A program made the translations under genes and the position numbers. A model generated the notes under the pieces. It ran no database searches and was not told the origin of the DNA. It was given only the letters and a program-made list of their open reading frames with translations. From contig JBBRRY010000001.1 of NCBI GenBank assembly GCA_038245905.1, positions 256,001 through 320,000 of the forward strand: a stretch of 64,000 nt of DNA. The letters run 5' to 3'. The stretch's first letter is position 1; the number at the start of each line of letters is the position of its first letter. Shown here piece after piece: positions 48 to 59,199 of this stretch. Origin of the DNA: Thermoanaerobaculia bacterium. GTDB lineage: Bacteria; Acidobacteriota; Thermoanaerobaculia; UBA5066.

Positions 48-916
48 CTCCGGTTTCCTTTCTCGTCGTACTCGAAGAATCCCCGCCCGGTCTTCCTGCC
101 GTAGCGGCCCGCCAGCACCATTCGTTTGAGGAGCGGTGGCGGAGCGAACCGTGTTTCGCGGTACTCACCGAACATGATCTCCGCGATCGCATACACAGTG
201 TCGAGCCCGACATAGTCGAGCAGCTCGAACGGGCCCATGGGATGGGCGCAGCCCAGCTTCATTCCCGCGTCGATGTCCTCGAGCGAGCCGACGCCCTGCT
301 CGGCCGCGCGGATCGCGTCGAGAAGAAACGGCACGAGCAGCCGGTTCACGACGAAACCGGAGTTGTCACGGCAGGCAATCGGCGTTTTCCCGAGCGCGCG
401 CGCGAACTCCGTCACACGCGTGATCGTGTCGTCGGACGTTTCGATCGCCCGAACCACCTCCACGAGCTTCATGACGGGCACCGGGTTGAAAAAGTGCAAC
501 CCGGCGAAGCGGTCTGGCCGCTTCGTCCCCGCTGCCAGCTCCGCGATCGTGAGCGACGACGTGTTCGAGCAGAAGATGGCGTGAGGCGCGCACGACTTGT
601 CGAGCACCTCGAATACCTCGCGCTTGGCGCCGAGATTCTCGACGATTGCTTCGATGACGAGATCGGAGGAAGAGATTTCTGCTAAGGAGGAAGAGAAGAT
701 CAGACGCGAGAGGATCGCGGATTCGTCCTCTTCTCGCAGCTTGCCGCGTTCGATTGCCTTAGAAAGGGATTGCGTGATTCGCCTGCGCCCCTTCGCGAGC
801 AATTCGTCGGTGGGTTCGCGCACGACGACCGAGTACCCCGCCTTCGCGCACACCTCGGCGATTCCGGAACCCATCAGGCCGGCGCCCAGGACCCCAACCG
901 CACGGATTTCAACCAA
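44..916 (-). CDS. hbd: 3-hydroxybutyryl-CoA / 3-hydroxyacyl-CoA dehydrogenase
   Basis: GAGLMG Rossmann motif, SNTSS, GLHFFNPVP, GFVVNR, PMGPF; directly downstream of a thiolase. Confidence 0.92.
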   Translation of the reverse strand: MVEIRAVGVLGAGLMGSGIAEVCAKAGYSVVVREPTDELLAKGRRRITQSLSKAIERGKLREEDESAILSRLIFSSSLAEISSSDLVIEAIVENLGAKREVFEVLDKSCAPHAIFCSNTSSLTIAELAAGTKRPDRFAGLHFFNPVPVMKLVEVVRAIETSDDTITRVTEFARALGKTPIACRDNSGFVVNRLLVPFLLDAIRAAEQGVGSLEDIDAGMKLGCAHPMGPFELLDYVGLDTVYAIAEIMFGEYRETRFAPPPLLKRMVLAGRYGRKTGRGFFEYDEKGNRR

Positions 917-958
917 CGGCCAGTCCCTGCCTTTCCCTCTTAGCCATTCAAAGAAGTC
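674..958. repeat. Dispersed motif cluster A: minus-strand variants at 674-687 and 752-767, plus-strand copy at 944-958
   Basis: CCTTAGCAGAAATC(-), CCTTTCTAAGGCAATC(-), CCATTCAAAGAAGTC(+). Confidence 0.65.
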
Positions 959-992
959 TTCTTTTTCTCTTCGTGCTCTTCGAACATCACAT

Positions 993-4587: not shown

Positions 4588-4600
4588 CTAGAATCGCGCC

Positions 4601-8086: not shown

Positions 8087-8090
<4 letters not shown>

Positions 8091-9649
8091 GTGGGACTTC
8101 CTCCAGGGCGTTTCCGGGGTTCGAGAACCCGCGCATGGAGGATACCGGCCAGAAGCCCTGCCGCGCAAACCCAGAGGGCGGCATCTCCCGCGGCGACGGC
8201 CGGCGGCGGCGGCCCGGGCCGGAAGACTGGCGCCGAGAACGCGCCCTTGCGTCCCGCGGACAGCGTCACGAGCGCGCGGCCGTCGGGGCCGACCGCGCCG
8301 CTGATCCCGGTGATGGCCGCACGCACGAGCGGCCTTCCCGTCTCGACGGCGCGCAAGACGGCGGCCTGCCAGTGCTGGCGCTGCGCGCCCGCGCGCCCGT
8401 ACCACGCGTCGTTCGTGAGCGTGAAGAGAACGTCGGCTCCCGCCCGCGTCTCGGCACGCGCGATCCACGGGTAGACGACCTCGTAGCAGACGGCGCCACC
8501 GAGCTTCCAGTCGCCGAGCGTGAGGAGGACCGTACCCGCACCCGGCGTGAACCCGCCCGGCACCGCGCGGCTGATCGGCCTGATCCTCCGCAGGACCGGT
8601 GCCAGCGGCACGTACTCGCCGAAGGGGACGAGGCGCTGCTTGAAGTACGGCGGGAGGATCGGCCCGGCCTTCGTGACGAGGAGCGCCGCATTGTAGTAAG
8701 GCGCGTCCTCGGACCACGGGGCGTCGGACCAGGCCGTGCTCACGAGGATCGCGACATCCAGCTCACGGCAGAGCTCGATGACGCGCTCGCGATAGGGCGG
8801 GTTGAAAGACCACGAATAGGGCGACGCGCTCTCGGGCCAGAGGATGAGGACGGGCCGGTCTGCACGGCAGAGGGCCCGCGTCTGGTCCTCGAGATCGCGC
8901 TGGATGCGCTCGGCCGTCCCCCTGTCCCACCGGATGTCCTGCTCGACGTTCGGCTGAACGACCCCGACCTTCAGGACCTCACGCGACTCGGGCGTGCGCC
9001 GCGGTCCGGCGGCGCCCGCCGCGAGCGCACACACACACGCCCCGGCGAGCCAGCTGAGGCGCGCGTTGCGCGTCGCGCGCGTCAGCGCGACGAAAAGCGC
9101 CGCGTTGAGCGCCGCGAGGAGAAAGGATGTGAGGAGGACGCCGCCAAGCGCGGCCGTTCCGAGGAGGGCAGGGACGTCCGCGAGCGGGTTCGCGAGGAGA
9201 TTCCACGGAAAGCCGCCGAAGATGAACACGTACGTCCGCGAGGACTCCTGGGCGACCCACGCGGCACCGAACGTCGCCACGACGCCGGGACCCGAGCGCG
9301 GAGCGACGACCGCGTAGAGCGATGCCATGAGGCCGAACGGGATCGCCATGAGGCCCGCCGAGATCGCGAGGGCGAGGCCCGCGAGCGGCCACCCGACGCC
9401 GCCGAAGCGGTGAACCGTGTAGGCGATCCACGGGATCGTGACGAGCCAGAACGCGCAACCGAAGACGAAGCCAGGGAGGAAGGCCCGCCGCCACGTCAGC
9501 CCGTCGAGCGCGAAGAGCAGCGGAATCAGGGCGATCGGGAGGAGCGGCAGGATCGAGAAGCTCGGAAAGCACAGCGCCAGGAGGACTCCGCCGCAGCAGG
9601 CCCAGAGCAATCGGGGGATTTTCTTAGAAGGTAGGAGAGCCAGCAACAT
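8087..9649 (-). CDS. lnt: Apolipoprotein N-acyltransferase
   Basis: Multiple TM helices, GGFPW, VQPNV, WPES, KQRLVPFGEY, VCYE, TNDAWYG. Confidence 0.95.
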
Positions 9650-9666
9650 TCACCTTCGAAGAAGCC
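9617..9666. repeat. Dispersed motif cluster B (divergent pair)
   Basis: ACCTTCTAAGAAAATC(-) 9617-9632 and ACCTTCGAAGAAGCC(+) 9652-9666. Confidence 0.75.
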
Positions 9667-27170: not shown

Positions 27171-27292
27171 CGGCGCGCAATCTACGGTAAGCGCCCGTCC
27201 CGGTCAAAGACCAGAGCGAGCTGCGCGCAGCCCTGAAGGCTCCGGGAACCGAATCTCCGCACACGGGTCCAAACGTGCGAAAGGAGATTCTC

Positions 27293-28150
27293 ATGCGCCA
27301 CCAGGTTCTCACCGCCCTGCTCCTCGCCGCCGGGGCCGCAAACGCCGCCTCTCCATCGGGTTTCGGTCTCGATGTTCTCGTGAACGGGAGCCCCCGCCCC
27401 GAATTCGCCGCGCGGGGCACCGTCTACGTGGAGGCGCTGAAGGGGCACGACTTCTCGCTGAGGGTCACGAACCCCCTCGGAGTCCGGGTGGCCGTCGCGC
27501 TCTCCGTGGACGGCCTCAACACGATCGACGCGAAGCACACGTCCGCGATTGACGCCCGCAAGTGGGTCCTCGACCCGTACCAGACGGTCGTGATTCCCGG
27601 CTGGCAGGTCTCCGGCGAGACGAGCCGGAAGTTCTTCTTCACGGGCGAAAAGGGCTCGTACGGTGCGAAGCTGGGCGAGACGTCGAATCTCGGGGCGATC
27701 GAGGCGGTGTTCTTTCGGGAGAGGCTCCCGTACAGGGCTCAGCGGCCGTGGAGCGGGGGAAAAGAGGAAGACAAGATTTCTTCGAATGAAAGAGGAAAAG
27801 GCGCCGGACGACTCGACGAGCCTCGGGTCGAGGCGGCCGCCGGCGCGGCGCAGCTTCCCGCCCCGAGCGAGAGCGTCGCCCGCGACCATTCAAAGAAATC
27901 CTCTTCTCCCCCCCCCTCTTCTCTCGCCGACGAGATGGCCGCCACCGGCATCGGCAGCCGGACGCGCTTTGACGTCACGCGCGTCAACCTCGACCTCGAG
28001 GATTCGCCGGCCGCGTCCGTGCGCCTTCGTTACGAGTTCCGGCCGCAGCTCGTCGCGCTGGGCGTCCTGCCCAGCGACCCGGATCCCGCCCGGATCGCCC
28101 GCCGCGAGCGTGCCCGCGGCTTCGAGGACTTCTGCCCCGAACCCCGCTGA
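27293..28150 (+). CDS. Secreted hypothetical protein
   Basis: AAGGAG SD, signal peptide, globular segments (VALSVDGLNTID, IPGWQ) flanking a low-complexity linker. Confidence 0.75.
   Translation: MRHQVLTALLLAAGAANAASPSGFGLDVLVNGSPRPEFAARGTVYVEALKGHDFSLRVTNPLGVRVAVALSVDGLNTIDAKHTSAIDARKWVLDPYQTVVIPGWQVSGETSRKFFFTGEKGSYGAKLGETSNLGAIEAVFFRERLPYRAQRPWSGGKEEDKISSNERGKGAGRLDEPRVEAAAGAAQLPAPSESVARDHSKKSSSPPPSSLADEMAATGIGSRTRFDVTRVNLDLEDSPAASVRLRYEFRPQLVALGVLPSDPDPARIARRERARGFEDFCPEPR
27775..27900. repeat. Dispersed motif cluster C (divergent pair)
   Basis: TCATTCGAAGAAATC(-) 27775-27789 and CCATTCAAAGAAATC(+) 27886-27900, with purine/pyrimidine tracts. Confidence 0.8.
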
Positions 28151-33467: not shown

Positions 33468-34279
33468 CGGCGAGACGCGTACGCCCGCCTGCCGTCGCCG
33501 GGACGTTCTACCCCGGCCGCCCCAGTGATCTCGCCCGAACCGTCGACGACCTGCTCGCCGAAGCCGGTCATCCGCCGGACGGGCCTCCGCCCGTCGCGCT
33601 CGTGGTCCCGCACGCCGGCTTCGTCTACTCGGGGCCTGTCGCCGCGAGCGCGTACGCGCGCTTGAAGACTCACGCGGCCTCGATCGCCCGCGTCGTCGCG
33701 TTCGGTCCGGTGCACCGCGTGCCGGTGCGCGGCGCGGCCGTTCCGGCTGCCGATGCGTGGGCAACACCCCTCGGCGAGGTGCCGATCGACGCCGGCCTGC
33801 GCGCACGGGCGGTCGCGCGCGGCGCCGTCGTGGACGACAGGCCTCACGCTCCCGAGCACGCGCTGGAGGTGCAGCTCCCCTTCCTCCAGCGCATCCTCGA
33901 CGAAGGGTTCACGTTCCTTCCTGTCGCGGTCTCGGAGCTGTCCGCGCGGGCCGCGGCCGACCTCGTCGACGAATTTCTCGGCGAGACAGGCACGCTCGTC
34001 CTCGTGAGCACGGACCTGAGCCATTACCACGACCTCGTCACGGCGCGCCGCCGCGACAGGTGCACGGCGGACTCGATCCTCGCGCGCGAGCCCGAAAAGC
34101 TCTCCGGCGAAGACGCGTGCGGTTTCTATCCGCTGAGGGGCCTCATGGAGCTGGCAAGGCGAAAAGGCCTCCCGGTGACTCTCCTCGACCTGAGGACCTC
34201 AGGCGACACCGCCGGGGACCCGGAAAGTGTCGTCGGCTATGGGGCGTTCGCAATTCCTAGTCTCATTAACCCATTCTAA
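33464..34279 (+). CDS. amrB: AmmeMemoRadiSam system protein B (MEMO1 family)
   Basis: [45 protein letters not shown]...VVGY. Confidence 0.93.
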
Positions 34280-34286
34280 GTAAATC
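34271..34286 (+). repeat. Dispersed motif single variant copy D
   Basis: CCATTCTAAGTAAATC spanning the amrB stop, just upstream of the suf promoter. Confidence 0.55.
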
Positions 34287-37097: not shown

Positions 37098-38476
37098 CGC
37101 GTCCCGCTCCGTCGACGGCCCTTCGTGAGGGGATTCCCACGCTCGCCGCGAGCGCCAGGGAACTCGCGGCGCGGCGGCCGAGCCCGCCCTGGCTGCAGAA
37201 GCTGCGGACGTCCGCCCTCGCCGAGTTCGAGGCGCTCGGCTTCCCGTCGACGAACGACGAGGACTGGCGCTTCACGAACCTGGCACCCCTGGCCCGGACC
37301 GCCTTCGCGCTTTCTCACGACGACGTCTCCCTCGCCGAGCGGACCGCGGCGCTCGAATTGGAAGCGCGGCTTGGACCGTTGGGACTCTCGTCGCCGGAGC
37401 CCCGGATCGTGTTCGTGAACGGGCGTCTTCTGAGGCGATCTCCGGGCAATCTCACCGCCGCGATTCTCTTCGAGTGTATGAAGGACGTTCTCGCGAGATC
37501 GCCGGAGCTTGTCGAACGCGCCCTCGTTGCGCACGCGGCCGAGAGAGACTCTTCGAAGGACTTCTTTGGCGCTCTCTCTGATGCTTTTCTCGACAACGGC
37601 GCGGTCCTGCACGTGCCGGCCGGCGCCCATCTCGAAGAACCTCTCTTCATCCTCCATGTCGCAACGCCGCCGGGCTCCTCGGAAGCGCCCCGAATGGTGC
37701 ATTCACGCAGTCTCTTCACATTCGAAGAAAACTCTTCCGCAACCGTGATCGAGGCGTATCTGGGATCGAGCGGCTCGAGCTTCACGAACAGCCGCACCGA
37801 CGTCACGCTCGCGAGGGGCGCCCGCCTCCAACACGTCACGCTTCAGCTGGAGGGCCCCGACGCGTTTCACGTCGGCCGGCTCGCCGTGACGCAGGCAGCG
37901 GCCTCCCACTCCACGTCTCATGTCTTCTCGTTCGGGGGAAAGCTCGCCCGGAACGAAGTCGCCATCACCCTCTCGGGCGAGGGCGCCTTTGGGGAGCTGA
38001 ACGGCCTGTTCTGCGCCGCCTCTTCCCAGCACGTCGACTGCCATACGCTCATCGACCACGCCCTGCCCCGCGCCTCGAGCGTCGAGCTGTACAAGGGCGT
38101 CCTCGACGGCACGGGCCGCGGCGTCTTCGACGGCAAGATCCTCGTGCGCGCCGGCGCCGCCCGCACGGACGCGCGCCAGACGAATCGCAACCTCGTCCTC
38201 TCCGACAGCGCCCTCGTCGACAGCAAGCCCCAGCTCGAGATCCACAACAACGACGTCCGCTGCACGCACGGCTCGACGACCGGGCGCCTCGACGCCGACG
38301 CCGTGTTCTACCTGCGCTCGCGCGGCCTCTCGCCCGAGGCGGCTCGGGCGCTCCTCACATACGCGTTCGGCAGCGAGCTGATCGAGAAAGTGCCGTCCGC
38401 CGACGTGCGGGCTTTTCTCGAAAACCATCTGCGCGCCTGGCTGCCCGCGAACCTCGCCGCTCCGGAGGCCCGATGA
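37094..38476 (+). CDS. sufD: Fe-S cluster assembly protein SufD
   Basis: [28 protein letters not shown]. Confidence 0.95.
37547..37734. repeat. Dispersed motif cluster E (divergent pair inside sufD)
   Basis: CCTTCGAAGAGTC(-) 37547-37559 and ACATTCGAAGAAAACTC(+) 37718-37734. Confidence 0.7.
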
Positions 38477-40197: not shown

Positions 40198-40548
40198 ATG
40201 GCTGAAGAGAAGATTTTCTTAGAGGGTAATAAGGGCGAGAGCGCATCCCCTCTCGAGCAAAAGGTCATCGACGAAGCGCTGAAGAAGTGCTTCGACCCAG
40301 AGATCCCGGTCAACATCTGGGAGCTGGGGTTGATCTATTCGGTTGCCGTGTCGCCCGAAGGCGCCGCCGACGTGAAGATGACGCTGACGGCGCCCGCGTG
40401 CCCCGTCGCGGGATCCCTTCCCGGCGAGGTCGAGACGAAGATCAAGGCCGTTCCGGGCATCACGGACGCGAAGGTAGAGCTCGTCTGGGACCCGCCCTGG
40501 ACGGCCGGAATGATGTCCCGCGTGGCGCGCGTCATGCTCGGGATGTAG
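40198..40548 (+). CDS. sufT: DUF59 / SufT Fe-S maturation protein
   Basis: DPEIPVNIWELGLIY, MTLTAPACP, WDPPW. Confidence 0.9.
   Translation: MAEEKIFLEGNKGESASPLEQKVIDEALKKCFDPEIPVNIWELGLIYSVAVSPEGAADVKMTLTAPACPVAGSLPGEVETKIKAVPGITDAKVELVWDPPWTAGMMSRVARVMLGM
40212..40227 (-). repeat. Dispersed motif single copy F
   Basis: ACCCTCTAAGAAAATC on minus, encoding KIFLEG in sufT. Confidence 0.7.
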
Positions 40549-42037
40549 CGGGCTCCGGTCTCCGCAGAGACAGCAGCCATCCTGTTCCGAACGCGATCGT
40601 GGAGCCGATGAGGGAGTACCAGGGCCACGCGATCGCCTTGCCGAGCGGGAACGGGATCCAGCCCTTCGAGCCGAGCCACAAGACGAACATGAAGACGGCG
40701 GATGTTGCGATGCCGATCATCGCGTCTGTCTGAGTCGCCTTCTTCGCCCAGAGGGCAAGGAGGAAGCCTCCGAGGAGTCCGCCCGCGGTGACGCTCGCGA
40801 GACCGAGCGCGACCTGCACGGCCGGGACGTTCTGCGGCAGGCGCGAGAACCCGACGGCGAGAGCGGCGAGAACGATCGTCCAGAAGAGGGTGAGCAGCTT
40901 GCCGAGAACGAGCCCGCGCCTTCCCTCCACGTGCTTCCTACCCATTAGGGGCGCGACGATGTCCATCGCGAGGGCCGACGCGAGCGAGTTGAGCGCGGAC
41001 GACTCCGAGCACATCGCGGCAGAGAAGATCCCGGCGACGAGCCAGGCAGAGACGAACGGCGGCAGGCTCGTCACGATGAACGTCGGCAGGATCGCGTCCG
41101 AGGACGCGAACCCGCCCGGCCCGACGACGCGCCCGCCGTAGAACGCGAACATCCCGACGCCGAGCGCGAGGAACAGCGTGAACTGCAGGATCACGAGGAC
41201 GCCTGAGCCGATGAGGGCCTTCTGCGCGTCGCGCAGGCCGCGGCACGCCAACAATCTCTGGACGATCAGCTGGTCGGCGCCGTGGGACGCCATGGCGAGG
41301 ACTGCCCCACCTATGATTCCGGCCCACAGCGTGTACGGTTCGGAAAGATTCTTTGAAAGGTTAAAGAGCGAGACGGGTCTGCCGAGCTCCGAACACCTTC
41401 TAAGAATCTCCTCCCATCCCCCTCCGAATGAATGGAGGAGCACCCAAAGAGCCATCGTCGCGCCCGAGATGTACACGAAGACCTGGATGAGGTCGATCCA
41501 GATCACGGCCTTGATGCCGCCGACGTACGTGTAGAGCGCCGTCGCGGCCGCGAGAATCAGGATGGCGACCCAGACGGGGATCCCGAGGATAAGGGCGATT
41601 GGGATCGCGGGCACCGCGAGGCGGACGCTCGCGGCCATCACCCGCGTGACCATGAAGATGACGGACGTGAACCGCCGCGCGCCGACACCGAAGCGGCGCT
41701 CGAGGAGCGCGTACGCCGTCGTAATCTCTCCGTGGAAGTATCCAGGCAGGAGCAGGAACGACACGGCGATCCGCCCGATCAGGTAGCCGAACGCGAGCTG
41801 CAGGAACGTGAAGCCGGTCCGGTACGCGTCGCCCGGCACGGAGAGAAAAGTCAGGGCCGATGTCTCCGTCGCGACGATGGACGCCATGACGGCCCACCAC
41901 GGCATGGCGTGGCCGCCCAGGAAATAGTCCTTCGCGTCCTTCTGGCCCTTTCCGAGCCAGGCGCCGAGCACGTTGATACCGGCGAGGTACAGCGCGATCG
42001 CGATGAGCGTCGGCAGCCCGAGGGAAATCCCTTCCAT
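40532..42037 (-). CDS. Sodium:solute symporter (SSS) family protein
   Basis: DYFLGG, SIVATETSALTF, GGIKAVIWIDLIQ, DQLIVQRLL; many TM helices. Confidence 0.92.
   Translation of the reverse strand: MEGISLGLPTLIAIALYLAGINVLGAWLGKGQKDAKDYFLGGHAMPWWAVMASIVATETSALTFLSVPGDAYRTGFTFLQLAFGYLIGRIAVSFLLLPGYFHGEITTAYALLERRFGVGARRFTSVIFMVTRVMAASVRLAVPAIPIALILGIPVWVAILILAAATALYTYVGGIKAVIWIDLIQVFVYISGATMALWVLLHSFGGGWEEILRRCSELGRPVSLFNLSKNLSEPYTLWAGIIGGAVLAMASHGADQLIVQRLLACRGLRDAQKALIGSGVLVILQFTLFLALGVGMFAFYGGRVVGPGGFASSDAILPTFIVTSLPPFVSAWLVAGIFSAAMCSESSALNSLASALAMDIVAPLMGRKHVEGRRGLVLGKLLTLFWTIVLAALAVGFSRLPQNVPAVQVALGLASVTAGGLLGGFLLALWAKKATQTDAMIGIATSAVFMFVLWLGSKGWIPFPLGKAIAWPWYSLIGSTIAFGTGWLLSLRRPEPATSRA
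41347..41408. repeat. Dispersed motif cluster G (divergent pair inside the SSS gene)
   Basis: ACCTTTCAAAGAATC(-) 41347-41361 and ACCTTCTAAGAATC(+) 41395-41408. Confidence 0.8.
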
Positions 42038-48100: not shown

Positions 48101-48405
48101 CCGAGACGCTCCTCAAGGGCACGATGGACCTCGTCTTCGAGGAGGACGGCGTCTGGTACATCGTCGACTGGAAGTCCGACGTCGTCGGCGACGGCCTCGC
48201 GGGCCTCGTCGCGCACTACGCGCCGCAGGTTCGGCACTATCGGCGCGCCTGGGAGCGCCTCACCGGGCAGAGGGCCAAGGCCGGACTCTTCTTCATGGAC
48301 ACGGGGCACCTCGAGTGGCTGGTCGAAGAAGGAAAAGGAGAAGAGGAGACTTCTTTGAAGGTGAAGAGGGACGGGCCCCGGCAAGGCTCGCTGTTCGGCG
48401 AATGA
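45103..48405 (+). CDS. addA: AddA-like UvrD helicase-nuclease
   Basis: AGAGSGKT, TFTRKAA, VDEFQDTD, VGDPKQSIYRFR, HRAKGLE, YVAATRARD, GTMDLV...DWKS. Confidence 0.88.
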   Translation: MTPKRSDLAPDAAARDLVRTSLDTTLLVEAGAGSGKTTMLVERILALLLSGTAEPENIAAVTFTRKAASNLRRRFQTALEEAARLEPNPERRARAASALSALDRVTVGTIDSFCATLLGERPLEAGVDPAALRVELQEAKEFRARFFREYAGRAAESGGLLTDLLRLGVRMRELEETFDLLAEYRDVTVVKADPLPLPDFVMERAVVEDYLDRTLPWVPPVPLAAGRDDLQNALIKAREARELPEYQTPVGFTRLLVELRKATKGTHYKWGDSALGKRVSDEFVILRRDVIKPALTEWQVALHERMMGVLEPGLQELAQALPREGRYTYADLLLATRDLLRDFPAVRRAFSARFTRILVDEFQDTDPLQAEVLLYLSSDDSEEKDTSRLIPRPGALFVVGDPKQSIYRFRRADISAYMDFRRRITAAGGRVVLLTANFRSVPALTAAVNAAFRPPVFPNVPDDRQAAYAELMPARADARPTSGVFHLISRPGADEGSEGGNAVDVARFVRWAVDAEWKISPDGKEQPARFRDFLILTRAREHIDEYARAMEDLGIPVDVSGSRALPISRGLAVLRPLLAAAQDPDDSVAIVAFLAGPLCGVDDDALYAFRRAGGRFSYLAPPPSGSDPRILQGLDLLSRARTDVRALPAGAALGSIADRMGLVARLAAGRQGRTASGNLLKVLALARRLSGNGLSFGDVVARLAEDAPDLDLEEMSVEPVDGDSVRLMNLHRAKGLEAPIVILAELSNWRKADPRRHVARGVSGSRGWFTAGYNALLPGRQNVWMVTAAPRDWDSRKAEEIAFENAEKTRLLYVAATRARDTLVVSLRGVKPELGAWGALRGITRELPHAVADFRPSAPSKAPGLAAAFKEVPSRVAAARAAASAPSFGVTTVTALAKKEGPRAPSPAEEARGSAWGRVLHQILEAAMRTSGLDLEPLATNLMRDEEVAPDRLDDVLRVAASVTESDLWARALKSPKRFVEVPFEMVVPSKDLGRTDGPAETLLKGTMDLVFEEDGVWYIVDWKSDVVGDGLAGLVAHYAPQVRHYRRAWERLTGQRAKAGLFFMDTGHLEWLVEEGKGEEETSLKVKRDGPRQGSLFGE

Positions 48406-48794
48406 GAAGGGCCACCGTTCTCGCCGTGATTCTCGCGGCCGGCTGCGCGTCGTCCGACTGGGCGAAGACCGAGAGCGTGCCGGGCGGCAAGCTCTACCTC
48501 CCAAAGCTCTACGCTCCGCTCCTCCCCGGCTCGATCTATCCAGACAGGAAGACGCCCCTACCGCCGAAGGGCCGCCCGGCGATCGTCGTCGTCTGCCCGG
48601 CGAAAGGCGACTGCCGGAAGAGAGAGATCCTCGATCAGGCGGCGCAACGTGGCCTCGTCGTCCTCGTCACCCGGAGAGCCGACGCCGCAATTGCCGCCCG
48701 GCCCGAGGTGGATGTCGCGCGGACCGGGATTCTCATCGTAGCCGCCGCTTCGCTGAAGGCTGAGCCCTCTCCCTCTTCCCCTTGTAAGAAAATC
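48348..48794. repeat. Dispersed motif cluster H (divergent pair)
   Basis: ACCTTCAAAGAAGTC(-) 48348-48362 and CCTTGTAAGAAAATC(+) 48780-48794. Confidence 0.7.
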
Positions 48795-48944: not shown

Positions 48945-48974
48945 GACGTGCTCTCGGCGCTAGAATTCGCGCCA

Positions 48975-51773
48975 ATGAAGACCCGGAACGAGGGCGCGGT
49001 TCGCGCGAAGGGCGTCCTTCACCCGTGGCAGAGGCGTCTCTACGTGTTGCTGCTCGTGCCTCTCGGGCTGATGGCGGCGAACTCGATCTATCTCGTCGCC
49101 TTCACGAAGTACTCCTCGTTCTTCATGGCGATGCTGCTCATGCACCTGGTGCTGGGCCTCCTCATCGCGATTCCGTTCCTCGTCTTCGCCTTCACGCACG
49201 GGGCGCGGATGCTGGCAAACATCCGGAACCGGAAGGCGAAGGCCGCGGGAATCACGATCGTCTGCCTGGCGCTCCTGTGTATCGGCTCAGGGATCACGAT
49301 GGCGTGGAAGGGCGCGACGCTTACGAATCGCCCGATCTATTTCGCGCACGTCTTGGCGATCCCGGTCGCCCTCGTCGCGTTCATCCTCCACCGCCGCGCG
49401 GCCGTCCACAAGCTGCACCTCCGGCGCCTCTTCCAGTGGGGCGGCGCGGTGGCCGCGTTTCTCGCCGGCATGGCGGTGCTCCACAAGCTGGAGAAGCCGC
49501 CGCAGCGCATCGTGAACCGGGAAGGCGACACGCAGTTCTTCCTCTCGTCCGCCGAGACGTTCGATCAGGGCCTTCTGGACGGGAAGAAGCTCGCCGCGAA
49601 CACATACTGCCAGGACTGCCACCCCGACTCCTTCAAGCGCTGGGAGAAGTCCGCCCACCGCTTCTCGTCTTTCAACAACCCGTTCTACCGCCGCTCCGTC
49701 GAGCTGATGGCCGACCGCGTGGGCCGCGAGAAGACGAAGTGGTGCGCCGGCTGCCACGACCCCGTCGTCCTGTTCACCGGCCAGATGGGAAAGGCCACGA
49801 TGGCCTCGTTCTCGTACGACCAGTTCGAGGCGCAGCAGGGGCTGACGTGCATGGCTTGCCACTCGATCGCCGAGGTCAAGGATGTCCGCGGGAACGGCGG
49901 GTACGTGGTGGAGGAGAGCAAGCAGTACCCCTTTGCCTTTGCGGACAGCAAGGTCCTGAAAGAGGTCAACAAGCTCCTCATCCGCATGGAGCCGTCGCTC
50001 CATCGGCAGACGTTCATGAAACCGTTCATGCGCACGCCCGAGTTCTGCGCGACGTGCCACAAGGTCAGCCTCCTTCCGCCGATGAACGAGTACCGCTGGC
50101 TGCGCGGCCAGAACCATTTCGATTCGTGGCAGGACTCGGGCGTGTCCGGCTACGCCGTGCGCTCCTTCTACGACCCGCTGAAGGCGAAGGCCTGCCGCGA
50201 CTGCCACCTGCCGCTCATGCCCTCCCAGGAATTCGGGAACCAGGCTGGCATGCTCCACGACCACCTCTTCCCCGCCGCGAACACGGCCCTTCCCGCGATA
50301 AGGGGAGACAAGGAAACCGTCGAAGAGATTCGTAGAAAGGTATTGGTCGGATCGCTTTCCATCGATGTCTTCGGTTTGAAGCGAGGCAACGAGGTCGTTC
50401 CGCTTGGGCCGGCTCTGCCCTCACTTCGCCCCGGGGAGATGGTGGACGTCGAAGTCGTCGTGAGGACGCGCACGCTCGGGCACCCCTATACGAACGGCAC
50501 GGCCGACAGTAACGAGTCCTGGGTCGAGTTTCACGCGAAGAACGGCGAGCGGAGCCTCATGGAGTCCGGCACGCTCGACGCCGCGAGGCGGCTCGATCCG
50601 GCATCCAGCAAGCTGAATCAGCTCGTGATCGCCCACGACGGGACGCCGATGGACCGCCGCCAGCCGCAGGACATTCACGTCCCGCTCTACAACAACGCGA
50701 TCGGACCCGGCGCCGCGCGCGTCGTCCACTACCGCTTCAAGGTGCCGACCGACGCGAAGGGATCCGTGACGCTTTCGGCATCGGCGAACTACCGCAAGTT
50801 CTCGCGCGACTACTCGATCTTCGTCCACGGCAAGGACGCGATCGACCTTCCCGTCACGCGCATCTCGACGGACTCGGTCACGCTCCCTGTCGCGCCGGCT
50901 CCCGAAGGGACTCTCGCGGCCGACGTGAAGCGCGGAAACCCCGACTGGCCCGAGAAGGGCTGGATCCGCTGGAACGACTACGGCATCGGGCTTCTCCTGC
51001 AGGGAGACCTCAGGGGCGCATCCCAGGCCTTCGCGAAAGTTGCGGAGCTCGCGAAAGACAAGCCGGATGGTCCGCTGAACCTTGCCCGCGCGAAAATCCA
51101 GGAAGGCGACCTGCCCGCCGCGAAAGCCGCGCTCGCCGAAGCCGAGACGCGCCGCCCGGGATGGCCGAAGACGGCCTACTTCCGATCTCTCGCTTCCAAG
51201 GAAGAGGGCCGTCTCGACGACGCCCTCGCGGACCTCGAACACGTGGACCAGAAGTTCCCGAAGGACCGTGTCGTCCTGAACCAGAGGGCGCGCGTCCTCT
51301 ATCTCGCGGGCCGTTACGCCGACGCTCTCCCCTTCATCGACCGTGTCCTCGCGATCGACGGCGAGGACCTGGCCGCTCACTACAACGCGATGCTCTGCCT
51401 CAGGGCCCTCGGCCGCGCCACCGAAGCCGCCGCCGAGGAGAAGTGGTACCGCTACTTCAAGGACGACGAGTCGTCACGGGCCGTTCTCGCCGACTACCGA
51501 AGAACGCATCCGTTCGACAACCGCGAATCCCTCCCGGTGCACGTCCACGACGAGCCTCTTCCGGCGAAGGCCGGGGAGCCGTCCTGGATCGCGGAGATCG
51601 GACCGAAAGGCTACGAGTACAAGGGCTACGCGCCGAAGAACGAGATGGTCCTGAAGGACGATCGGCCCGTCGGCGCCCCGCGCCCGTTCGCGCGCCCGGA
51701 GACGCCGAAAACGGCGACGGGAAAGAAGGCCGCGGGGTCGGTTCCCGTCGCCGTCATCCAGATTCCCGAGTGA
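48975..51773 (+). CDS. Membrane-anchored pentaheme c-type cytochrome fused to TPR repeats
   Basis: About 5 N-terminal TM helices; CQDCH, CAGCH, CMACH, CATCH, CRDCH; C-terminal TPRs after WNDYGIGLL. Confidence 0.85.
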   Translation: MKTRNEGAVRAKGVLHPWQRRLYVLLLVPLGLMAANSIYLVAFTKYSSFFMAMLLMHLVLGLLIAIPFLVFAFTHGARMLANIRNRKAKAAGITIVCLALLCIGSGITMAWKGATLTNRPIYFAHVLAIPVALVAFILHRRAAVHKLHLRRLFQWGGAVAAFLAGMAVLHKLEKPPQRIVNREGDTQFFLSSAETFDQGLLDGKKLAANTYCQDCHPDSFKRWEKSAHRFSSFNNPFYRRSVELMADRVGREKTKWCAGCHDPVVLFTGQMGKATMASFSYDQFEAQQGLTCMACHSIAEVKDVRGNGGYVVEESKQYPFAFADSKVLKEVNKLLIRMEPSLHRQTFMKPFMRTPEFCATCHKVSLLPPMNEYRWLRGQNHFDSWQDSGVSGYAVRSFYDPLKAKACRDCHLPLMPSQEFGNQAGMLHDHLFPAANTALPAIRGDKETVEEIRRKVLVGSLSIDVFGLKRGNEVVPLGPALPSLRPGEMVDVEVVVRTRTLGHPYTNGTADSNESWVEFHAKNGERSLMESGTLDAARRLDPASSKLNQLVIAHDGTPMDRRQPQDIHVPLYNNAIGPGAARVVHYRFKVPTDAKGSVTLSASANYRKFSRDYSIFVHGKDAIDLPVTRISTDSVTLPVAPAPEGTLAADVKRGNPDWPEKGWIRWNDYGIGLLLQGDLRGASQAFAKVAELAKDKPDGPLNLARAKIQEGDLPAAKAALAEAETRRPGWPKTAYFRSLASKEEGRLDDALADLEHVDQKFPKDRVVLNQRARVLYLAGRYADALPFIDRVLAIDGEDLAAHYNAMLCLRALGRATEAAAEEKWYRYFKDDESSRAVLADYRRTHPFDNRESLPVHVHDEPLPAKAGEPSWIAEIGPKGYEYKGYAPKNEMVLKDDRPVGAPRPFARPETPKTATGKKAAGSVPVAVIQIPE
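50327..50341 (-). repeat. Dispersed motif single variant copy I
   Basis: ACCTTTCTACGAATC on minus, within an AT-shifted codon patch (EEIRRKV). Confidence 0.6.
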
Positions 51774-56425: not shown

Positions 56426-56439
56426 AGCCCGGCGCGACC

Positions 56440-59124
56440 CTACATCCCCGCCTGCGGCCGGAGGTCGATCGTCGGCTTCGGCTCGTAGTGATTCAGGAAG
56501 TCGTTCACGCTCTCCTGCTGCGCGGCCTTGAAGGCGCCGCGAAGCTGGATCTGTTCGAGCGACTGCGCGAGATAGCGCGAGCCTCCCATGTACTTCGGCG
56601 ACTTGTCCTTGAAGAACGCCTCGACCTCCGCCCGGTGAGCGGCGTCGCTGAAGCCCGAAGCGAGCATCGGGAAGCGGGCGGGCGACTCGCGCGGGAGACG
56701 CGCGACGATCCGGTCGAAATTCGCCTGCAGGAACGTCCACGCCTGCCCTCGCGTTTCCCGGTCCGTCGCGATCTCCCGGAGGATCGCGTTCGACTCGCGC
56801 GCGTCGAAGTCCTCCGACAGCGTCGCGTTGAGCGCGGCCGGGACGACCGTCGGGTCGTGGAATCGGCCGAGCGCCGAAAGGAGGCGCACGCGCTCGCGGC
56901 GGTCCACGGCCTTCTTCGCCTGGGCGCGAAACTCCTGGAAAAGCTCCATGTCGCCGTGCCGCGCGGCGACGTCGAGGACGGAGGGCGCCATCAGAGCGTC
57001 GACCGCGCCCCGGTCCTTCAACCAGGCGTTCGCGAGGCGCATCGCGTCGGCCACGAGAGCCGGCTCGTCGCCCTCGTTCGCGACGAAGGGGACGAGCTCC
57101 CCGCGCAGAAGTTGCGTGTCCTCGTCCTCTCCAGGCTTCGCTTTCCAGCCGAGGGCGTGCGCGCGCGCGCCGAAGACATCGCTCACGAACCGGCGATACC
57201 GCGGGCGCATCGCATCGGTGACGAGAAGATCGCGCGGCGCTGCGGCAATCTTCTGGATCGCCTCGACGACCGGCCGGTCGGGGTCGTTCGCGAACACCGG
57301 CACGAGCGCGAGCGCCGTCGCCATCGGGACGTCGCCGCTTCGCGCGAGGGCGGCCACGTCCGAAAGCGTCGCGACGCGCTCCGACACGGTCAGGTGCCTG
57401 CCGCTGTCGGCGAGGATCTTTCCGAGCATGCTGCCCGCGTAGAGAACGCGGTAGTAACCCGCACCGGCATTCGCGAAGACACGCGCGGGGCAGGCGCCCG
57501 GAAGCGCCATCTCGCCCGCTGGCTCCATGAGGAGCATGCAGGTCTTCTCGGACCCGGGGTCCCCGGTGCGCGCGCAGACGGGCACCCGCCATGTCTCCTT
57601 CGTCGATCCCGTCGAACCGGTCGGGAGGAAGCGCTTCTGCGAGAGGAGGAGCTTCGGCGCGCCGCCCGTGCACACGAGCTCGGCCGTCACGAGAGGGACG
57701 CCCGGCTGGTCGAGGAACGAGCGGAAAGCCGGAATGACCGCGGGCGTCTGCGTCGCCTCCGCGATCGCGGCCACGAAGTCGTCGGCCGTCGCCGTCCCCC
57801 AGGCGTAGGCCCTCAGGTAGCGCTGGATACCCTTCCGGAAGCCCTCCTCGCCGACCCAGCCCTCGAACATCTCGATGACGGCGGCGCCCTTCTGATACGT
57901 GATTCCATCGAACGCGCTCACGATGTCGTCGTCTCCTTCGATCGGCTGACGGATGCGCCGCGCCGTGACGAGCGAGTCCTGGTCCATCGCGCCCGTCCGC
58001 GACGCCGCGCGCTGGACCGCCCAGCTCCATTCGGGCTTCCAGCGATCGACGATCTTCGAGCCCATCCACGTCGCGAACGCCTCGTTGAGCCAGATGTCGT
58101 TCCACCACGCCGTCGTGACGTAGTCGCCGAACCACTGGTGTGCCGTCTCGTGCGCGCAGACGCTCGCGTACGCGCGGCGGAAGCGGATCGTCTCGTCGGC
58201 GGGCTTCGCGAGGAGGAGGCTCGAGGAATACGTCACGAGCCCCGCGTTCTCCATGGCGCCGAAGCCGACGGTCTGCGGGATCACGAGGTGGTCGAGCTTC
58301 TCGTAGGGATACGGGATGTCGAAGTACGTCTCGAGCACCTCGAGGATCGGGCCCGTGGAGGCGGCGGCCCAGCGAGCCTCGGCCGCGCGGCCCTTCGGGA
58401 CGATCATCCTCACCGGCGTCTTGTTGCGGCCGGCGACACCCGCGTTCACGACGTCGAAGGGGCCGACGCCGAACGCGACGAGATAGCTCGGGAGAGGCTT
58501 CGTCTCGCCGAAGACGAACTTCCGCCCGCCGTCCGCATCAGCGGCCTCCGACACGACCGGCGTGTTCGCGACCGCGATCGCTCCCTTCGGGGCGTGGATC
58601 GTGAGCTGCCAGGGCGTCTTGTATGAGGGCTCGTCGAAGCAGGGAAACACGCGCCGCGCGTAGATCGCCTCGAAGTGGCTGAAGGCGTACCAGTCGGCGC
58701 CTTCCTTCTGGCGAAACATGCCTTCCGTGTCCTTCGACTCGATGCGTCCCGAATACCTGAGGTCGATCTGCCAGAGACCGGGAGAAAGACTTCTTTGAAA
58801 GGTGAGACCGACGTAGTTGCTGCCACTCGCGGCCGCGGCGGCGGGGACCGCCTCGCCCCCTCCCACGGGGTGCGCGGACGCCGACTTCACGTCCAGCTCC
58901 TTTGCGTTCAACCAGACCGCGCCCGTCTCCACTTTCAAAGAAATCTCTATCGCGATCTTCCCTTCGAACGACTCCTTCGCCGGGTCGATCCACAGCTCGG
59001 CGGCGTAGCGCACGGGCGCGGCGCCAGCAGGGAGTCTGAGCTTCGGAGGCGCGGGGGACTCCGCGTGGACGAGAGCGCTGAATCCGAGCACGGCGGAGAG
59101 AAAGACCGAGCCGAGTCTGCTCAT
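56440..59124 (-). CDS. M1 aminopeptidase with ERAP1-like C-terminal domain
   Basis: ARRVFPCFDEP, GAMEN, HETAHQWFG...WLNEAFA, ITYQKG; signal peptide. Confidence 0.95.
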   Translation of the reverse strand: MSRLGSVFLSAVLGFSALVHAESPAPPKLRLPAGAAPVRYAAELWIDPAKESFEGKIAIEISLKVETGAVWLNAKELDVKSASAHPVGGGEAVPAAAAASGSNYVGLTFQRSLSPGLWQIDLRYSGRIESKDTEGMFRQKEGADWYAFSHFEAIYARRVFPCFDEPSYKTPWQLTIHAPKGAIAVANTPVVSEAADADGGRKFVFGETKPLPSYLVAFGVGPFDVVNAGVAGRNKTPVRMIVPKGRAAEARWAAASTGPILEVLETYFDIPYPYEKLDHLVIPQTVGFGAMENAGLVTYSSSLLLAKPADETIRFRRAYASVCAHETAHQWFGDYVTTAWWNDIWLNEAFATWMGSKIVDRWKPEWSWAVQRAASRTGAMDQDSLVTARRIRQPIEGDDDIVSAFDGITYQKGAAVIEMFEGWVGEEGFRKGIQRYLRAYAWGTATADDFVAAIAEATQTPAVIPAFRSFLDQPGVPLVTAELVCTGGAPKLLLSQKRFLPTGSTGSTKETWRVPVCARTGDPGSEKTCMLLMEPAGEMALPGACPARVFANAGAGYYRVLYAGSMLGKILADSGRHLTVSERVATLSDVAALARSGDVPMATALALVPVFANDPDRPVVEAIQKIAAAPRDLLVTDAMRPRYRRFVSDVFGARAHALGWKAKPGEDEDTQLLRGELVPFVANEGDEPALVADAMRLANAWLKDRGAVDALMAPSVLDVAARHGDMELFQEFRAQAKKAVDRRERVRLLSALGRFHDPTVVPAALNATLSEDFDARESNAILREIATDRETRGQAWTFLQANFDRIVARLPRESPARFPMLASGFSDAAHRAEVEAFFKDKSPKYMGGSRYLAQSLEQIQLRGAFKAAQQESVNDFLNHYEPKPTIDLRPQAGM

Positions 59125-59199
59125 TCGCGGACTTTACGATGAAATTTGCCACGCCCCTATTGCGATAGCATCGTCGGCCAATGACCATTCAAAGAAATC
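58788..59199. repeat. Dispersed motif cluster J (one minus copy, then two plus copies)
   Basis: ACCTTTCAAAGAAGTC(-) 58788-58803; ACTTTCAAAGAAATC(+) 58931-58945; CCATTCAAAGAAATC(+) 59185-59199. Confidence 0.85.

Follow-up and report, generated by a model that had tools for sequence, protein, structure and literature searches.

Divergently paired sequence boxes dispersed through an uncultured Thermoanaerobaculia genus, possible sites of a lineage-specific DNA-binding protein

Introduction

The sites of MatP (matS), SlmA and Noc number tens to hundreds chromosome-wide, lie both within and between genes and leave one macro-region site-poor, while REPINs are short scattered repeats that often form inverted doublets. 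Chi and KOPS/SRS are over-represented oligomers that are tolerated within genes. The uptake sequences of the Pasteurellaceae (USS) and Neisseriaceae (DUS) are described as hundreds of short, lineage-specific copies on both strands and in all frames, brought about by substitution in parts of proteins that tolerate it, conserved in related species and occurring as 'dialects' in related lineages (PMC2817400, PMC3630211), with 765-1,892 copies given for three genomes (PMC2817400). HIP1 (GCGATCGC) of cyanobacteria is reported as hyper-abundant and conserved within and between ORFs, with a proposed role in chromosome or nucleoid structure and no evidence that it acts through peptide, RNA or gene regulation (PMC5861425), and has been linked to orphan methyltransferases (PMC4390886).

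The box described here shares features with each of these systems. It resembles USS/DUS in all the respects named above, but forms a strictly divergent pair around 28-290 bp of unique DNA, carries long purine/pyrimidine tracts, has a several-fold lower density, is depleted near dnaA and is known from the sequence of an uncultured organism. Like HIP1, it is short, hyper-abundant and conserved in and between ORFs, shows no sign of a function in peptide, RNA or gene regulation, and has a chromosome-level role proposed for it; HIP1, however, is a perfect 8-bp palindrome that occurs singly, whereas the box lacks symmetry, spans at least 14 bp with its tracts and is paired. It is scattered through the genome in inverted doublets like REPs and REPINs, yet REPs are palindromes that form hairpins outside genes and are spread by a Y1 transposase, while the arms of the box are mostly intragenic, made in situ and without pair-specific complementarity, in a genome without a Y1_Tnp gene. 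It is chromosome-wide with one site-poor macro-region, as are the sites of MatP, SlmA and Noc, but those are single palindromes of 12-16 bp that are either sparse or concentrated at the terminus, in contrast to asymmetric, paired arms that are sparse around dnaA. Finally, Chi and KOPS/SRS are likewise tolerated in genes, but are strand-skewed with replication, whereas the box is strand-balanced against GC skew and on both sides of dnaA.

The analysis started from a 64-kb stretch of DNA (the window), which is a sample of the ~345 loci across the chromosome of one uncultured Thermoanaerobaculia genus. The host genus is acidobacterial and belongs to soil/sediment.

Abundance and anatomy of the box

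The window contains 12 copies of the exact core TTCNAAGAA, where 0.93 matches are expected and 0 of 100 shuffles reach 12, and the 448 cores of the whole genome correspond to a density about eight times the expectation from the window shuffle (0.93 per 64 kb). At a position weight matrix (PWM) score of at least 15, the 3.8-Mb genome holds 615 arms, as single copies are called here (~1 per 6 kb), and in the score bins above 18 the genome has 552 as opposed to 1 in a 2-Mb third-order Markov control. The motif is thus real and stronger than the original prediction had stated. Window positions were scored with a matrix of 38 columns built from paired copies across the genome, at a cut-off of at least 12. 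Twelve of the 19 copies first listed are the exact core and 17 reach the cut-off, while the copies at 752 (-) and 37549 (-) fall below it and are weak look-alikes.

The box is AT-rich and asymmetric, with the consensus YYYYTTCMCY-TTC[T/A/G]AAGAA-AWC and then ~20 nt of pyrimidines. It begins with a pyrimidine-rich stretch of ~11 nt, followed by C at -2, TTC[T/A/G]AAGAA, A, W and a pyrimidine tract to ~+31; a motif exists as first described, but its proposed length of 15 bp was too short. Eight of the nine core positions were preset by the search pattern used in collecting copies, while C at -2 (96% of paired arms), A at +9 (74%) and the pyrimidine flanks lie outside that pattern. The core spacer carries an asymmetric, conserved AA.

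Sites in the window

The host genes confirmed by Pfam encode an SSF symporter, SufD, a SufT-like protein, an AddA-like helicase-nuclease, an M1 peptidase, an FG-GAP/ASPIC protein and Lnt. In the following list, 'kept' refers to the PWM score at the aligned place in up to five relatives.

677..685, - strand: weak arm (first listed as 674-), PWM 19.8, inside the 3-hydroxyacyl-CoA dehydrogenase gene 44-916(-) (Pfam); loose left partner of 947+ at 270 bp; kept in 0/2 aligned relatives
947..955, + strand: strong arm, exact core, PWM 38.3, a short way upstream of where gene 44-916(-) starts, with a '-' strand gene on either side; kept in 2/2 aligned relatives
9621..9629, - strand: left arm, tightly paired with 9655+ (34 bp; ssDNA fold of the pair z -2.5), exact core, PWM 33.1, at the 5' edge of lnt (8087-9610, '-'; Lnt by Pfam); kept in 5/5 relatives
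9655..9663, + strand: weaker right arm of 9621/9655, exact core, PWM 14.9; kept in 2/2 aligned relatives
27778..27786, - strand: left arm of pair 27778/27889 (111 bp), exact core, PWM 39.7, within ORF 27275-28150(+) (no Pfam family), in a linker that is hypervariable and of low complexity; kept in 4/4 aligned relatives
27889..27897, + strand: right arm of 27778/27889, exact core, PWM 31.4, with a pyrimidine tract of varying length after it; kept (at least 12) in 5/5 relatives
34274..34282, + strand: single arm with one-mismatch core TTCTAAGTA, PWM 26.8, where ORF 33464-34279 ends, at a gene boundary; kept in 2/2 aligned relatives
37721..37729, + strand: sufD arm in the frame T-F-E-E-N-S, exact core, PWM 31.5, overlapping the SufBD core domain (Pfam)
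40216..40224, - strand: single arm, antisense K-I-F-L-E-G, PWM 31.5, within the N-terminal tail encoded by the SufT-like gene 40198-40548(+) (Pfam); kept in 4/4 aligned relatives
41349..41357, - strand: left arm of pair 41349/41398 (49 bp), exact core, in the sodium:solute symporter gene 40535-42037(-)
41398..41406, + strand: right arm of the symporter pair, antisense E-I-L-R-R-C, exact core; PWM at least 17 in 5/5 relatives
48351..48359, - strand: strongest arm of the window, reading E-T-S-L-K-V, exact core, PWM 41.8, within the C-terminal tail encoded by the AddA-like gene 45103-48405(+) (Pfam); wide left partner of 48782+ at 431 bp; kept in 4/4 aligned relatives
48782..48790, + strand: right arm of this wide pair, one-mismatch core TTGTAAGAA, PWM 34.7, upstream of gene 48948-51773; kept in 4/4 aligned relatives
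50329..50337, - strand: weak single arm TTCTACGAA, PWM 17.4, inside gene 48948-51773(+); kept in 1/5 relatives; possibly decaying, or a chance occurrence
58791..58799, - strand: left arm of pair 58791/58934 (143 bp), exact core, PWM 27.2, in the part of the M1 peptidase gene 56440-59124(-) that encodes the N-terminal domain (Pfam); kept in 5/5 relatives
58934..58942, + strand: right arm of the M1 peptidase pair, exact core, PWM 32.9; kept in 5/5 relatives
59188..59196, + strand: single arm reading M-T-I-Q-R-N-L, exact core, PWM 36.8, in the opening codons of the FG-GAP/ASPIC gene 59181-60935(+) (Pfam); kept in 3/5 relatives

Arm 41398 is intact or nearly so in almost all of 20 genus orthologues, and arm 41349 occupies the same place in these 20, several copies being degenerate. 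The 27778 arm has been deleted together with its purine tract in one relative (G004). The sufD arm is found in only part of the genus, and the spread of the relatives' scores (24.3, 12.0, -14.6 and -18.2) shows gain or loss by substitution.

Pair architecture

The unit had been taken for a single site, and pairing had been missed; it is instead a divergent inverted pair with a unique interior, in which the '-' arm comes first and the '+' arm second, pointing apart, at an arm-to-arm spacing of 28-290 bp (median ~113). Among 372 strong arms, 278 (75%) have an opposite-strand partner on the inner side, 20-300 bp apart, and 9 on the outer side; there are 185 '-+' pairs below 600 bp as against ~2 '+-' pairs below 200 bp. 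About a quarter of the strong arms are without a detectable partner. The spacing shows no significant helical phasing (best Rayleigh p ~0.03-0.05 at 10.25-10.5 bp, uncorrected).

The interior is ordinary host DNA with the base composition of the genome, and within-pair arm identity equals that of shuffled pairs (z 0.4, 1.3 and -0.8), on which count selection for a hairpin failed as an explanation. Arms that match the consensus and not each other fit independent protein sites rather than a selected hairpin or an inverted duplication. Mobile-element ends or landing pads, with the arms as terminal inverted repeats or transposase-binding sites (MITE, REPIN or a Tn7-like end), would explain inverted arms around a variable interior, and the nested ('--++') and tandem ('---+') arrays recall multi-site transposon ends. 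This is nevertheless improbable, as the interiors are homologous to the outgroup and unchanged in length, an arm resembles its own partner no more than it resembles the arms of other pairs, and '-+' pairs show no excess at kilobase spacing, where the 13 intervals are ordinary multi-gene stretches, judged by ORF size and score alone. Moreover, Y1_Tnp/RAYT is absent here and occurs in 4/26 genus genomes, compared to 17/17 of a motif-free sister genus; MITEs and REP/RAYT both failed as explanations.

The short intragenic segments flanked by inverted repeats also recall invertons, in which an invertase would flip the interior using the arms as crossover sites. However, interiors are collinear in 20/20 symporter orthologues and in 6/6 genomes at 27778/27889, the central base is unequal between the arms in 42/76 pairs, and a flipped interior keeps the frame open in 23/58 intragenic pairs, which does not exceed frame-shifted controls (33-41%) and is lower than for random segments (57%), so that inversion was rejected and appears barely conceivable.

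Relation to genes and coding

As originally proposed, most copies lie within coding sequences, 340/447 cores falling in ORFs of a crude codon-score gene finder that over-calls. The use of all six frames proved true genome-wide and about equal (sense 42/28/33, antisense 30/28/31, plus 21 with an in-frame stop), and the quoted peptides TFEENS, ETSLKV, KIFLEG and EILRRC were recovered in translations. Predicted coding sequences contain 457 PWM arms, far above the 58-67 found in five synonymous-codon shuffles that preserve every protein and the codon use of each gene (5-7 fold enrichment), hence the arms are not explained by protein sequence or codon use. Together with the nearly equal use of frames and gene strands, this upholds the earlier claim of a constraint on DNA rather than protein. 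ORFs holding arm clusters have low codon scores; that arms force rare codons is only suggested.

In any transcript across a pair, an SD-like arm rich in purines precedes one that is rich in C/U and poor in G, and the arms pair in the minimum-energy fold of 3/3 complete pairs, as would be expected of an RNA-level element (hairpin, Rho-loading site, SD-like pause or small-RNA target). Such an element is nonetheless highly improbable, since neither sense nor antisense is preferred (70 vs 57 for single arms; 118 vs 112 for paired arms), pairs are placed relative to genes like random positions, the arms are without covariation, fold energies are mostly no better than those of shuffles (z -0.7, -1.4 and -2.5) and the window holds no Rfam family.

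Distribution along the chromosome

Contigs differ widely in arm density, with values of 0.13 to 3.5 per 10 kb. The arm-poor contigs C3 and C18 are core, collinear in 25/25 genus genomes and flank dnaA, where the GC-skew minimum is also located. On contig G032:C2, 11 sites lie in the 500 kb around dnaA, compared to 60 in the left 700 kb and 54 in the right 1224 kb; this depletion, missed by the original prediction, is partial (2-4 fold), and sites are sparse again at 1.6-1.7 Mb. The depletion around dnaA could reflect stronger coding constraint rather than a positional function. Arm strands are balanced against GC skew, with 34+/31- and 29+/31- on the two sides of dnaA in G032:C2, and there is no replichore strand bias. 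Chi and KOPS failed as candidates on these grounds, in agreement with the earlier statement that the motif matches none of the polar or palindromic signals then excluded.

Origin and conservation

In the symporter loop, outgroup orthologues have the same length and a homologous interior but lack the motif, and the arms were therefore made there by substitution, not insertion. Across five species, 56/68 aligned comparisons retain the arm at the orthologous place, above the ~43% simulated under neutrality at 19.5% divergence, while core identity to relatives (84.6%) exceeds the background (80.5%) modestly. Sites are demonstrably gained and lost by point substitution and short indels over existing sequence, coding or not, and, once made, are demonstrably maintained by selection or drive on the DNA.

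A structural or mutational signature that involves no dedicated reader is quite unlikely. In this reading, the purine/pyrimidine tracts and the easily melted AT core would be supercoil-sensitive elements or the product of a replication or repair bias particular to the lineage. Such a signature would be in keeping with the loose pair spacing, with tandem 30-bp arrays and with flanking tracts whose lengths shift by indels between species and between paralogues. However, a structural signal needs neither the C at -2 nor the asymmetric AA, strict mutual orientation across 100 bp is unaccounted for, retention exceeds the neutral expectation, and the replichore or gene-strand asymmetry that is the usual trace of replication- or transcription-coupled bias is lacking.

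Lineage distribution and proposed reading

Pattern matches number 92-386 per genome in 26/26 genomes of the genus, 2-38 in each of eight genomes of the sister genus, 0-1 in 26 genomes from eight other genera of the family and 0-4 in two other families, compared to 0-2 for a reversed-pattern control. The proposed chromosome-wide system is hence also lineage-wide, faint in the sister genus, where the preferred central base differs (mostly G), and near zero elsewhere.

The main rival of a paired binding site, unlikely though it seems, is an uptake-signal-like drive, in which the genus has machinery for DNA uptake or recombination that prefers the box, and the box accumulates by substitution where proteins tolerate it. 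Arms that arise by substitution in tolerant protein loops, whatever the frame or strand, and are retained at orthologous places would be expected of such a drive, as would a genus-specific motif with a weaker, 'dialect'-like form in the sister genus; known uptake sequences are described at poorly conserved residues of poorly conserved genes (PMC2817400). ComEC, DprA and a ComEA-like gene are present, but competence genes are near-universal, so that their presence does not discriminate. A drive on single sites should yield '+-' pairs equally, whereas three quarters of the strong arms form strictly divergent pairs and '+-' pairs are ~30-90 times rarer than '-+'. One uptake sequence suffices, and the three genomes with 765-1,892 uptake sequences are ~2 Mb each; the arms here are several-fold sparser. 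Oriented pairs go unmentioned in the uptake-sequence abstracts consulted (including PMC2817400).

The boxes point to a putative lineage-specific DNA-reading system, not to protein needs, and we tentatively favor, as plausible on sequence grounds, paired recognition sites of a putative lineage-specific DNA-binding protein. Each arm would be bound sequence-specifically, and two protomers, head-to-head on a pair, would act jointly on the enclosed ~100 bp via looping, wrapping or bridging, with the sites serving a chromosome-level role beyond the origin-proximal domain. A rigid bridging complex would space its arms more sharply than the broad range of 28-290 bp. The unpartnered quarter of strong arms and the modest excess in core identity likewise speak against paired sites, and a function-free molecular drive predicts a similar in-situ origin, conservation and lineage pattern. 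Pair polarity is alike in other genomes and in the sister genus.

Sequence and abundance of the box

The original prediction described a repeated AT-rich motif at 19 places in the window, and this is borne out in that these places share a common, longer pattern and that the window has 12 matches to the core TTCNAAGAA where 0.93 would be expected, a count reached in 0 of 100 dinucleotide shuffles (the pattern TTCNNNGAAGAA has 0 matches). Alignment of the cores yields an asymmetric box, referred to here as an arm, which consists of an upstream pyrimidine-rich stretch, a C at -2, the core, an A at +9, then W and a pyrimidine tract reaching to about +31. The host assembly (3.80 Mb in 113 contigs, 68% G+C, with the window at C1:256001-320000) harbors 448 cores, and a 38-column matrix, trained on the paired copies that it then helps to find, identifies 615 arms at a score of at least 15. 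In the score bins above 18, there are 552 matches in the genome as compared with 1 in a 2-Mb third-order Markov control. Seventeen of the 19 predicted sites reach a matrix score of 12, while two minus-strand sites, at 752 and 37549, fall below it. An assembly artefact was ruled out, as the boxes are present in 26/26 independently assembled genomes of the host genus, often in the same orthologous places.

Arms are arranged as divergent pairs

Arms are mostly found in pairs, with a minus-strand arm followed by a plus-strand arm, so that both face outward across host DNA. The window contains the following paired arms, together with its strongest arm:

9621 (-) and 9655 (+), divergent arm pair
27778 (-) and 27889 (+), divergent arm pair
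41349 (-) and 41398 (+), divergent arm pair in a symporter gene (symporter pair)
48351 (-), strongest arm of the window
58791 (-) and 58934 (+), divergent arm pair

Across the host genome, successive cores on opposite strands less than 600 bp apart form 93 pairs in the minus-plus order versus 9 in the plus-minus order, and the matrix arms give 185 minus-plus pairs within 600 bp and about 2 plus-minus pairs below 200 bp. An inner partner on the opposite strand, at 20-300 bp, exists for 278 of the 372 strong arms, as compared with 9 that have one on the outer side. The spacing of minus-plus pairs has a median of 113 bp and ranges from 28 to 290 bp (176 pairs within 300 bp); helical phasing of the spacing was not significant once several periods were tried, and no tighter spacing was found among stronger arms. 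Read on the top strand, a locus comprises a purine tract, GAT-TTCTTNGAA-GGTGAAGAGG, unique G+C-rich DNA, CCTCTTCACC-TTCNAAGAA-ATC and a pyrimidine tract, the interiors being unique sequence with the composition of the genome. Minus-plus pairs are also visible in the site listings of other genomes and in the sister genus.

Some loci are nested, with two minus-strand arms followed by two plus-strand arms, and others are tandem arrays of arms with a 30-bp period. A nested locus of four arms lies at C26:34800-35500 of the host assembly in an ORF that resembles alanine racemase by its translation, where the arms overlap conserved-looking residues; the low codon score of this ORF is due to its four arms. 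At C69:2157-2225, three tandem arms with an exact 30-bp period are located at a gene boundary, with a single opposite arm 105 bp away.

Independence from genes, reading frames and transcription

The prediction that the motif is overprinted on genes in all six reading frames was confirmed genome-wide, with 192 intragenic arms distributed as 42/28/33 over the sense and 30/28/31 over the antisense frames under a strict flank-frame criterion. Likewise, the names given to the host genes are supported by Pfam, and the peptides quoted for them are present in the translations. The strand of an arm does not depend on that of its host gene (single arms, 70 sense and 57 antisense; paired arms, 118 and 112) or, in the host genome, on local gene orientation. 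The placement of pairs resembles that of random positions among intragenic and boundary classes (40% vs 45% intragenic), and T is avoided as the central base solely at arms in which it would give an in-frame TAA. Promoters and terminators were rejected on the basis of this random-like placement and the independence from gene strand, and an intron-like reading (AG|GT ... AG) was rejected on inspection because the frame continues through the symporter pair, where the would-be intron measures 46 nt.

A codon-preserving shuffle had been proposed as a check, and the arms passed it: the predicted coding sequences contain 340 cores and 457 matrix hits, versus 68-79 and 58-67 after synonymous codons were shuffled within each predicted gene, leaving the protein and the per-gene codon use unchanged. 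The enrichment is thus 5-7 fold. Genes were called with a custom picker that scores ORFs by their codons and, with calls over 92.6% of the genome, over-calls; as arms distort codon statistics, genuine genes with arm clusters received low scores from it. The six frames, the use of both gene strands and the excess over synonymous shuffles uphold the original view that the constraint acts on DNA.

At 42086-48405 of the window, two large neighbouring genes have the appearance of an AddB/AddA-type helicase-nuclease pair, and the C-terminal tail of the AddA-like protein is made of one arm and its purine tract.

Phylogenetic distribution

The pattern CYTTCNAAGAAAWY is matched 171 times in the host genome and 92-386 times in each of the 26 genomes sampled from its genus (the motif-rich genus). 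Counts are 2-38 in the sister genus (eight genomes), 0-1 in eight further genera of the family (26 genomes) and 0-4 in two other families of the same order (12 genomes), while the reversed-pattern control stays at 0-2 throughout. Motif-bearing members of the sister genus have 10-38 matches, and G039 and G063 have 1-2. The 12 outgroup genomes include two unpublished ones (G019 and G024), and the outgroup results stand without these two; the related public records are all metagenome-assembled genomes (MAGs). The arm signal is hence limited to one genus, with a sparse precursor state in its sister genus. Searches of the literature on motifs and repeats of Thermoanaerobaculia and on uptake sequences of Acidobacteria turned up no such motif.

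Origin, retention and turnover

The symporter pair is found at the same place in 20 orthologues of the genus, which are 78-86% identical over an aligned stretch of 361 nt. In the sister genus and in another family, the orthologues lack the motif but share the loop length and a homologous interior, and therefore the symporter arms were made by substitution rather than by insertion. The same observations refute a MITE and, together with the unique interiors of genome-like composition, speak against transposon ends. Transposon ends were also rejected for minus-plus arms lying farther apart, as 13 intervals of 0.6-8 kb are ordinary multi-gene stretches by ORF size and score. Other pairs are located in hypervariable low-complexity linkers, in which tracts, and even one arm, were gained or lost by insertions and deletions.

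Conservation among orthologues, a further check suggested at the outset, was also found: of 85 orthologous places in five syntenic relatives, 17 were unaligned, and 56 of the other 68 keep an arm. A neutral simulation, which ignores coding constraint, retains 43% when run at the mean divergence observed (19.5%) and 9-26% when the rate is raised. The identity of cores to the relatives is 84.6%, versus 80.5% for 11-mers taken at random and 79.1% for AT-rich ones. Arms are also gained and lost, as the sufD arm is missing from two species and the minus-strand arm at 50329 is present in only 1 of 5 relatives. Thus, the signal was written in situ and is kept above the neutral expectation of a simulation without coding constraint.

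In the sister genus, a cluster of paralogous genes named Ser/Thr-kinase-like from their sequence (G054:C1:954001-969000) has, in each paralogue, two divergent arms separated by 93 bp at one shared position of the kinase domain, and some copies have an additional serine-coding pyrimidine tract beside the arm.

Chromosome-scale distribution

In the host genome, the arms group into 345 loci with slightly over-dispersed gaps (CV 1.16), and their density varies between contigs from 0.13 to 3.5 per 10 kb. The arm-poorest large contigs, C3 and C18, are not foreign, as 20-kb samples of them are collinear at 75-90% identity in 25/25 genomes of the genus, and in better assemblies their counterparts lie about 100 kb on either side of dnaA. 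The dnaA gene (C3:44126-44611) is located at the minimum of the cumulative GC skew of C3, so that the replication origin is likely there. Within the inspected part of C3 (35-60 kb), a strong arm pair is seen at 48661/48774, 4 kb from dnaA.

A 2.42-Mb contig of another genome of the genus (G032:C2, dnaA at 839 kb) was mapped with 125 listed sites, binned by hand; the map leaves out the 26 sites whose central base is C. Its three bins, 0-700 kb, 700-1200 kb and 1200-2424 kb, contain 60, 11 and 54 sites, respectively. The strands are balanced about dnaA (34+/31- to the left, 29+/31- to the right), and these counts argue against replichore polarity and for a depletion around the presumed origin, which amounts to 2-4 fold over 500 kb in this genome and to 3-12 fold on the contigs of the host. 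Coding constraint, rather than position, may be what thins out the arms near dnaA. In the host genome, arm strand has no association with GC skew, and the strand bias following replication that characterizes polar signals of the Chi or KOPS type is absent from both the skew comparison and the counts on the mapped contig, in agreement with the initial exclusion of Chi and KOPS. The signal is accordingly blind to genes, frames, transcription and the direction of replication.

Two local strand effects were seen. In G086:C1 (2.09-2.99 Mb), 27 of 30 central-T sites in two stretches are on the plus strand, and single arms of the host genome show a marginal strand heterogeneity between contigs (chi-square p 0.02) that is linked neither to GC skew nor to gene strand.

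Structural, mobile and RNA-level readings

A hairpin or inverted duplication was rejected, as the two arms of a pair do not resemble each other more closely than arms taken from separate pairs (z 0.4, 1.3 and -0.8). The central base is identical within 34 of 76 pairs versus about 26 expected, single-stranded DNA folding of three complete pairs gives z-scores of -0.7, -2.5 and -1.4, and no within-pair covariation was found in the test for hairpins and cruciforms. A REP/REPIN-RAYT system was dismissed because the host genome has no Y1 transposase (0 matches to PF01797, Y1_Tnp, which just 4 of the 26 genomes from the motif-rich genus carry), the arms are mostly intragenic, and pairs show no complementarity beyond the consensus. 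The distribution of Y1_Tnp (RAYT/IS200-like), the one protein family profiled across the bacterial family, is inverse to that of the motif, with 17/17 genomes of a motif-free sister genus and 7/8 of the sparse-motif genus carrying it; the ORFs of the family are mostly about 320 aa long (e.g. L129 and L130).

Invertible segments would yield flipped interiors. Orthologues are collinear throughout in a comparison of consensus contigs, which rare flipped forms could escape. The flipped interior is open in 23 of 58 intragenic pairs, a share no better than in frame-shifted controls (33-41%) and below that of random segments (57%). Logan DNA contigs from two studies, one of them possibly the source sample, show no molecule ends on the window and, among the joints listed, no strand change at an arm, which weighs neither for nor against any reading. 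In run X1, a Logan contig connects 38168 with 48351 and stops, with a side of 21 nt, at the strongest window arm; a repeat probably caused this misjoin in the assembly graph.

An RNA-level element is unlikely, since arms have no sense or antisense preference and a search of the window against Rfam gave no family at threshold. CACC-TTCTAAG, which forms the inside of the arm, can be likened to GGATCACCTCCTTTCTAAGG only if 3 nt are skipped (at the 3' end of 16S, the tail with its downstream sequence reads GATCACCTCCTTTCTAAGG, L094-L097), and an arm read inwards is Shine-Dalgarno-like (GAAGGTGA). The 16S tail is canonical in both genera, and the likeness of the arm to the 16S 3' end is probably due to chance. 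Readings that invoke DNA structure or mutation, a mobile element, RNA or an inverton are weaker than the two discussed below.

Comparison with known systems and possible mechanism

To our knowledge, the well-studied short DNA words that overwrite coding sequence genome-wide in bacteria are few, namely USS, DUS and HIP1. Each of them fed work on transformation, self-recognition or nucleoid structure. USS/DUS and HIP1 are the nearest known phenomena. The arms are, as is expected of uptake sequences, an over-represented, lineage-specific motif on both strands and in all frames, coding DNA included, which makes them similar to USS/DUS; however, USS/DUS act as single sites that are not known to need a partner in a given orientation, whereas the arms sit in oriented pairs. 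HIP1 resembles the arms in its over-representation and its conservation both inside ORFs and between them, with no role seen at the gene level, but is a perfect short palindrome read by cognate DNA methyltransferases, in contrast to the box, which is asymmetric in its C at -2, its A at +9 and its pyrimidine flanks. Like macrodomain and nucleoid-occlusion sites, the arms are chromosome-wide yet depleted in one macro-region, around dnaA.

An uptake signal spread by a transformation-type drive would account for both the in-situ origin and the phyletic pattern, but it leaves the arm pairs unexplained, with 278 of the 372 strong arms having an inner partner and 9 an outer one, and we consider it improbable. 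A strict pair rule is not a known feature of uptake sequences. The genes for ComEC, DprA and a ComEA-like protein are present in the genome of the host, an uncultured organism, and, being near-universal as far as we know, do not discriminate for this reading. An arm cluster upstream of comEC sits within a neighbouring ORF named methyltransferase-like from its sequence, and its nearness to comEC was taken as a coincidence. The abstracts of two uptake-sequence papers (PMC2817400, PMC3630211) do not mention a strict pair rule, and neither the paired, oriented and tract-flanked layout nor the origin-proximal depletion is described in the abstracts on USS/DUS and HIP1 (PMC2817400; PMC5861425).

Each arm fits the asymmetric consensus independently, and the orientation of two arms relative to each other is fixed although the DNA between them is arbitrary. 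Consensus, orientation, gene-blindness, in-situ origin, retention, phylogenetic distribution and thinning near the origin together make a putative lineage-specific DNA-binding protein that reads head-to-head arm pairs, with a role at the level of the chromosome, the simplest mechanism covering the data, which we put forward tentatively. In such a mechanism, the bracket would be a dyad-symmetric unit of two outward-facing asymmetric boxes with purine/pyrimidine tracts, the protein would read the boxes in pairs and clamp or loop about 100 bp of arbitrary DNA, and the brackets might jointly structure the nucleoid except for the origin-proximal domain, the signal being strong enough to rewrite codons, and even to add residues, in hundreds of genes genus-wide. 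The full combination, namely an undescribed chromosome-wide signal of about 350 brackets with a putative lineage-specific paired reader, nucleoid structuring outside the origin-proximal domain and genus-wide codon rewriting, is more doubtful, although conceivable.

For this class of signals, both the phylum Acidobacteriota and the architecture, in which oriented pairs bracket unique DNA, would be new. The signal follows an evolutionary gradient, in which most genera of the family lack it, one genus has it sparsely and another densely, so that the origin of the system should be traceable and the putative reader protein discoverable by phyletic profiling. Moreover, arms create low-complexity insertions in proteins, and they could be used as a taxonomic marker of the motif-rich genus in metagenomes. 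The two genera also differ at the central base of the core, which is mostly G in the sister genus (TTCGAAGAA, containing the palindrome TTCGAA) and follows the order T > A > G in the dense genus, a difference that could represent a dialect or CpG decay.
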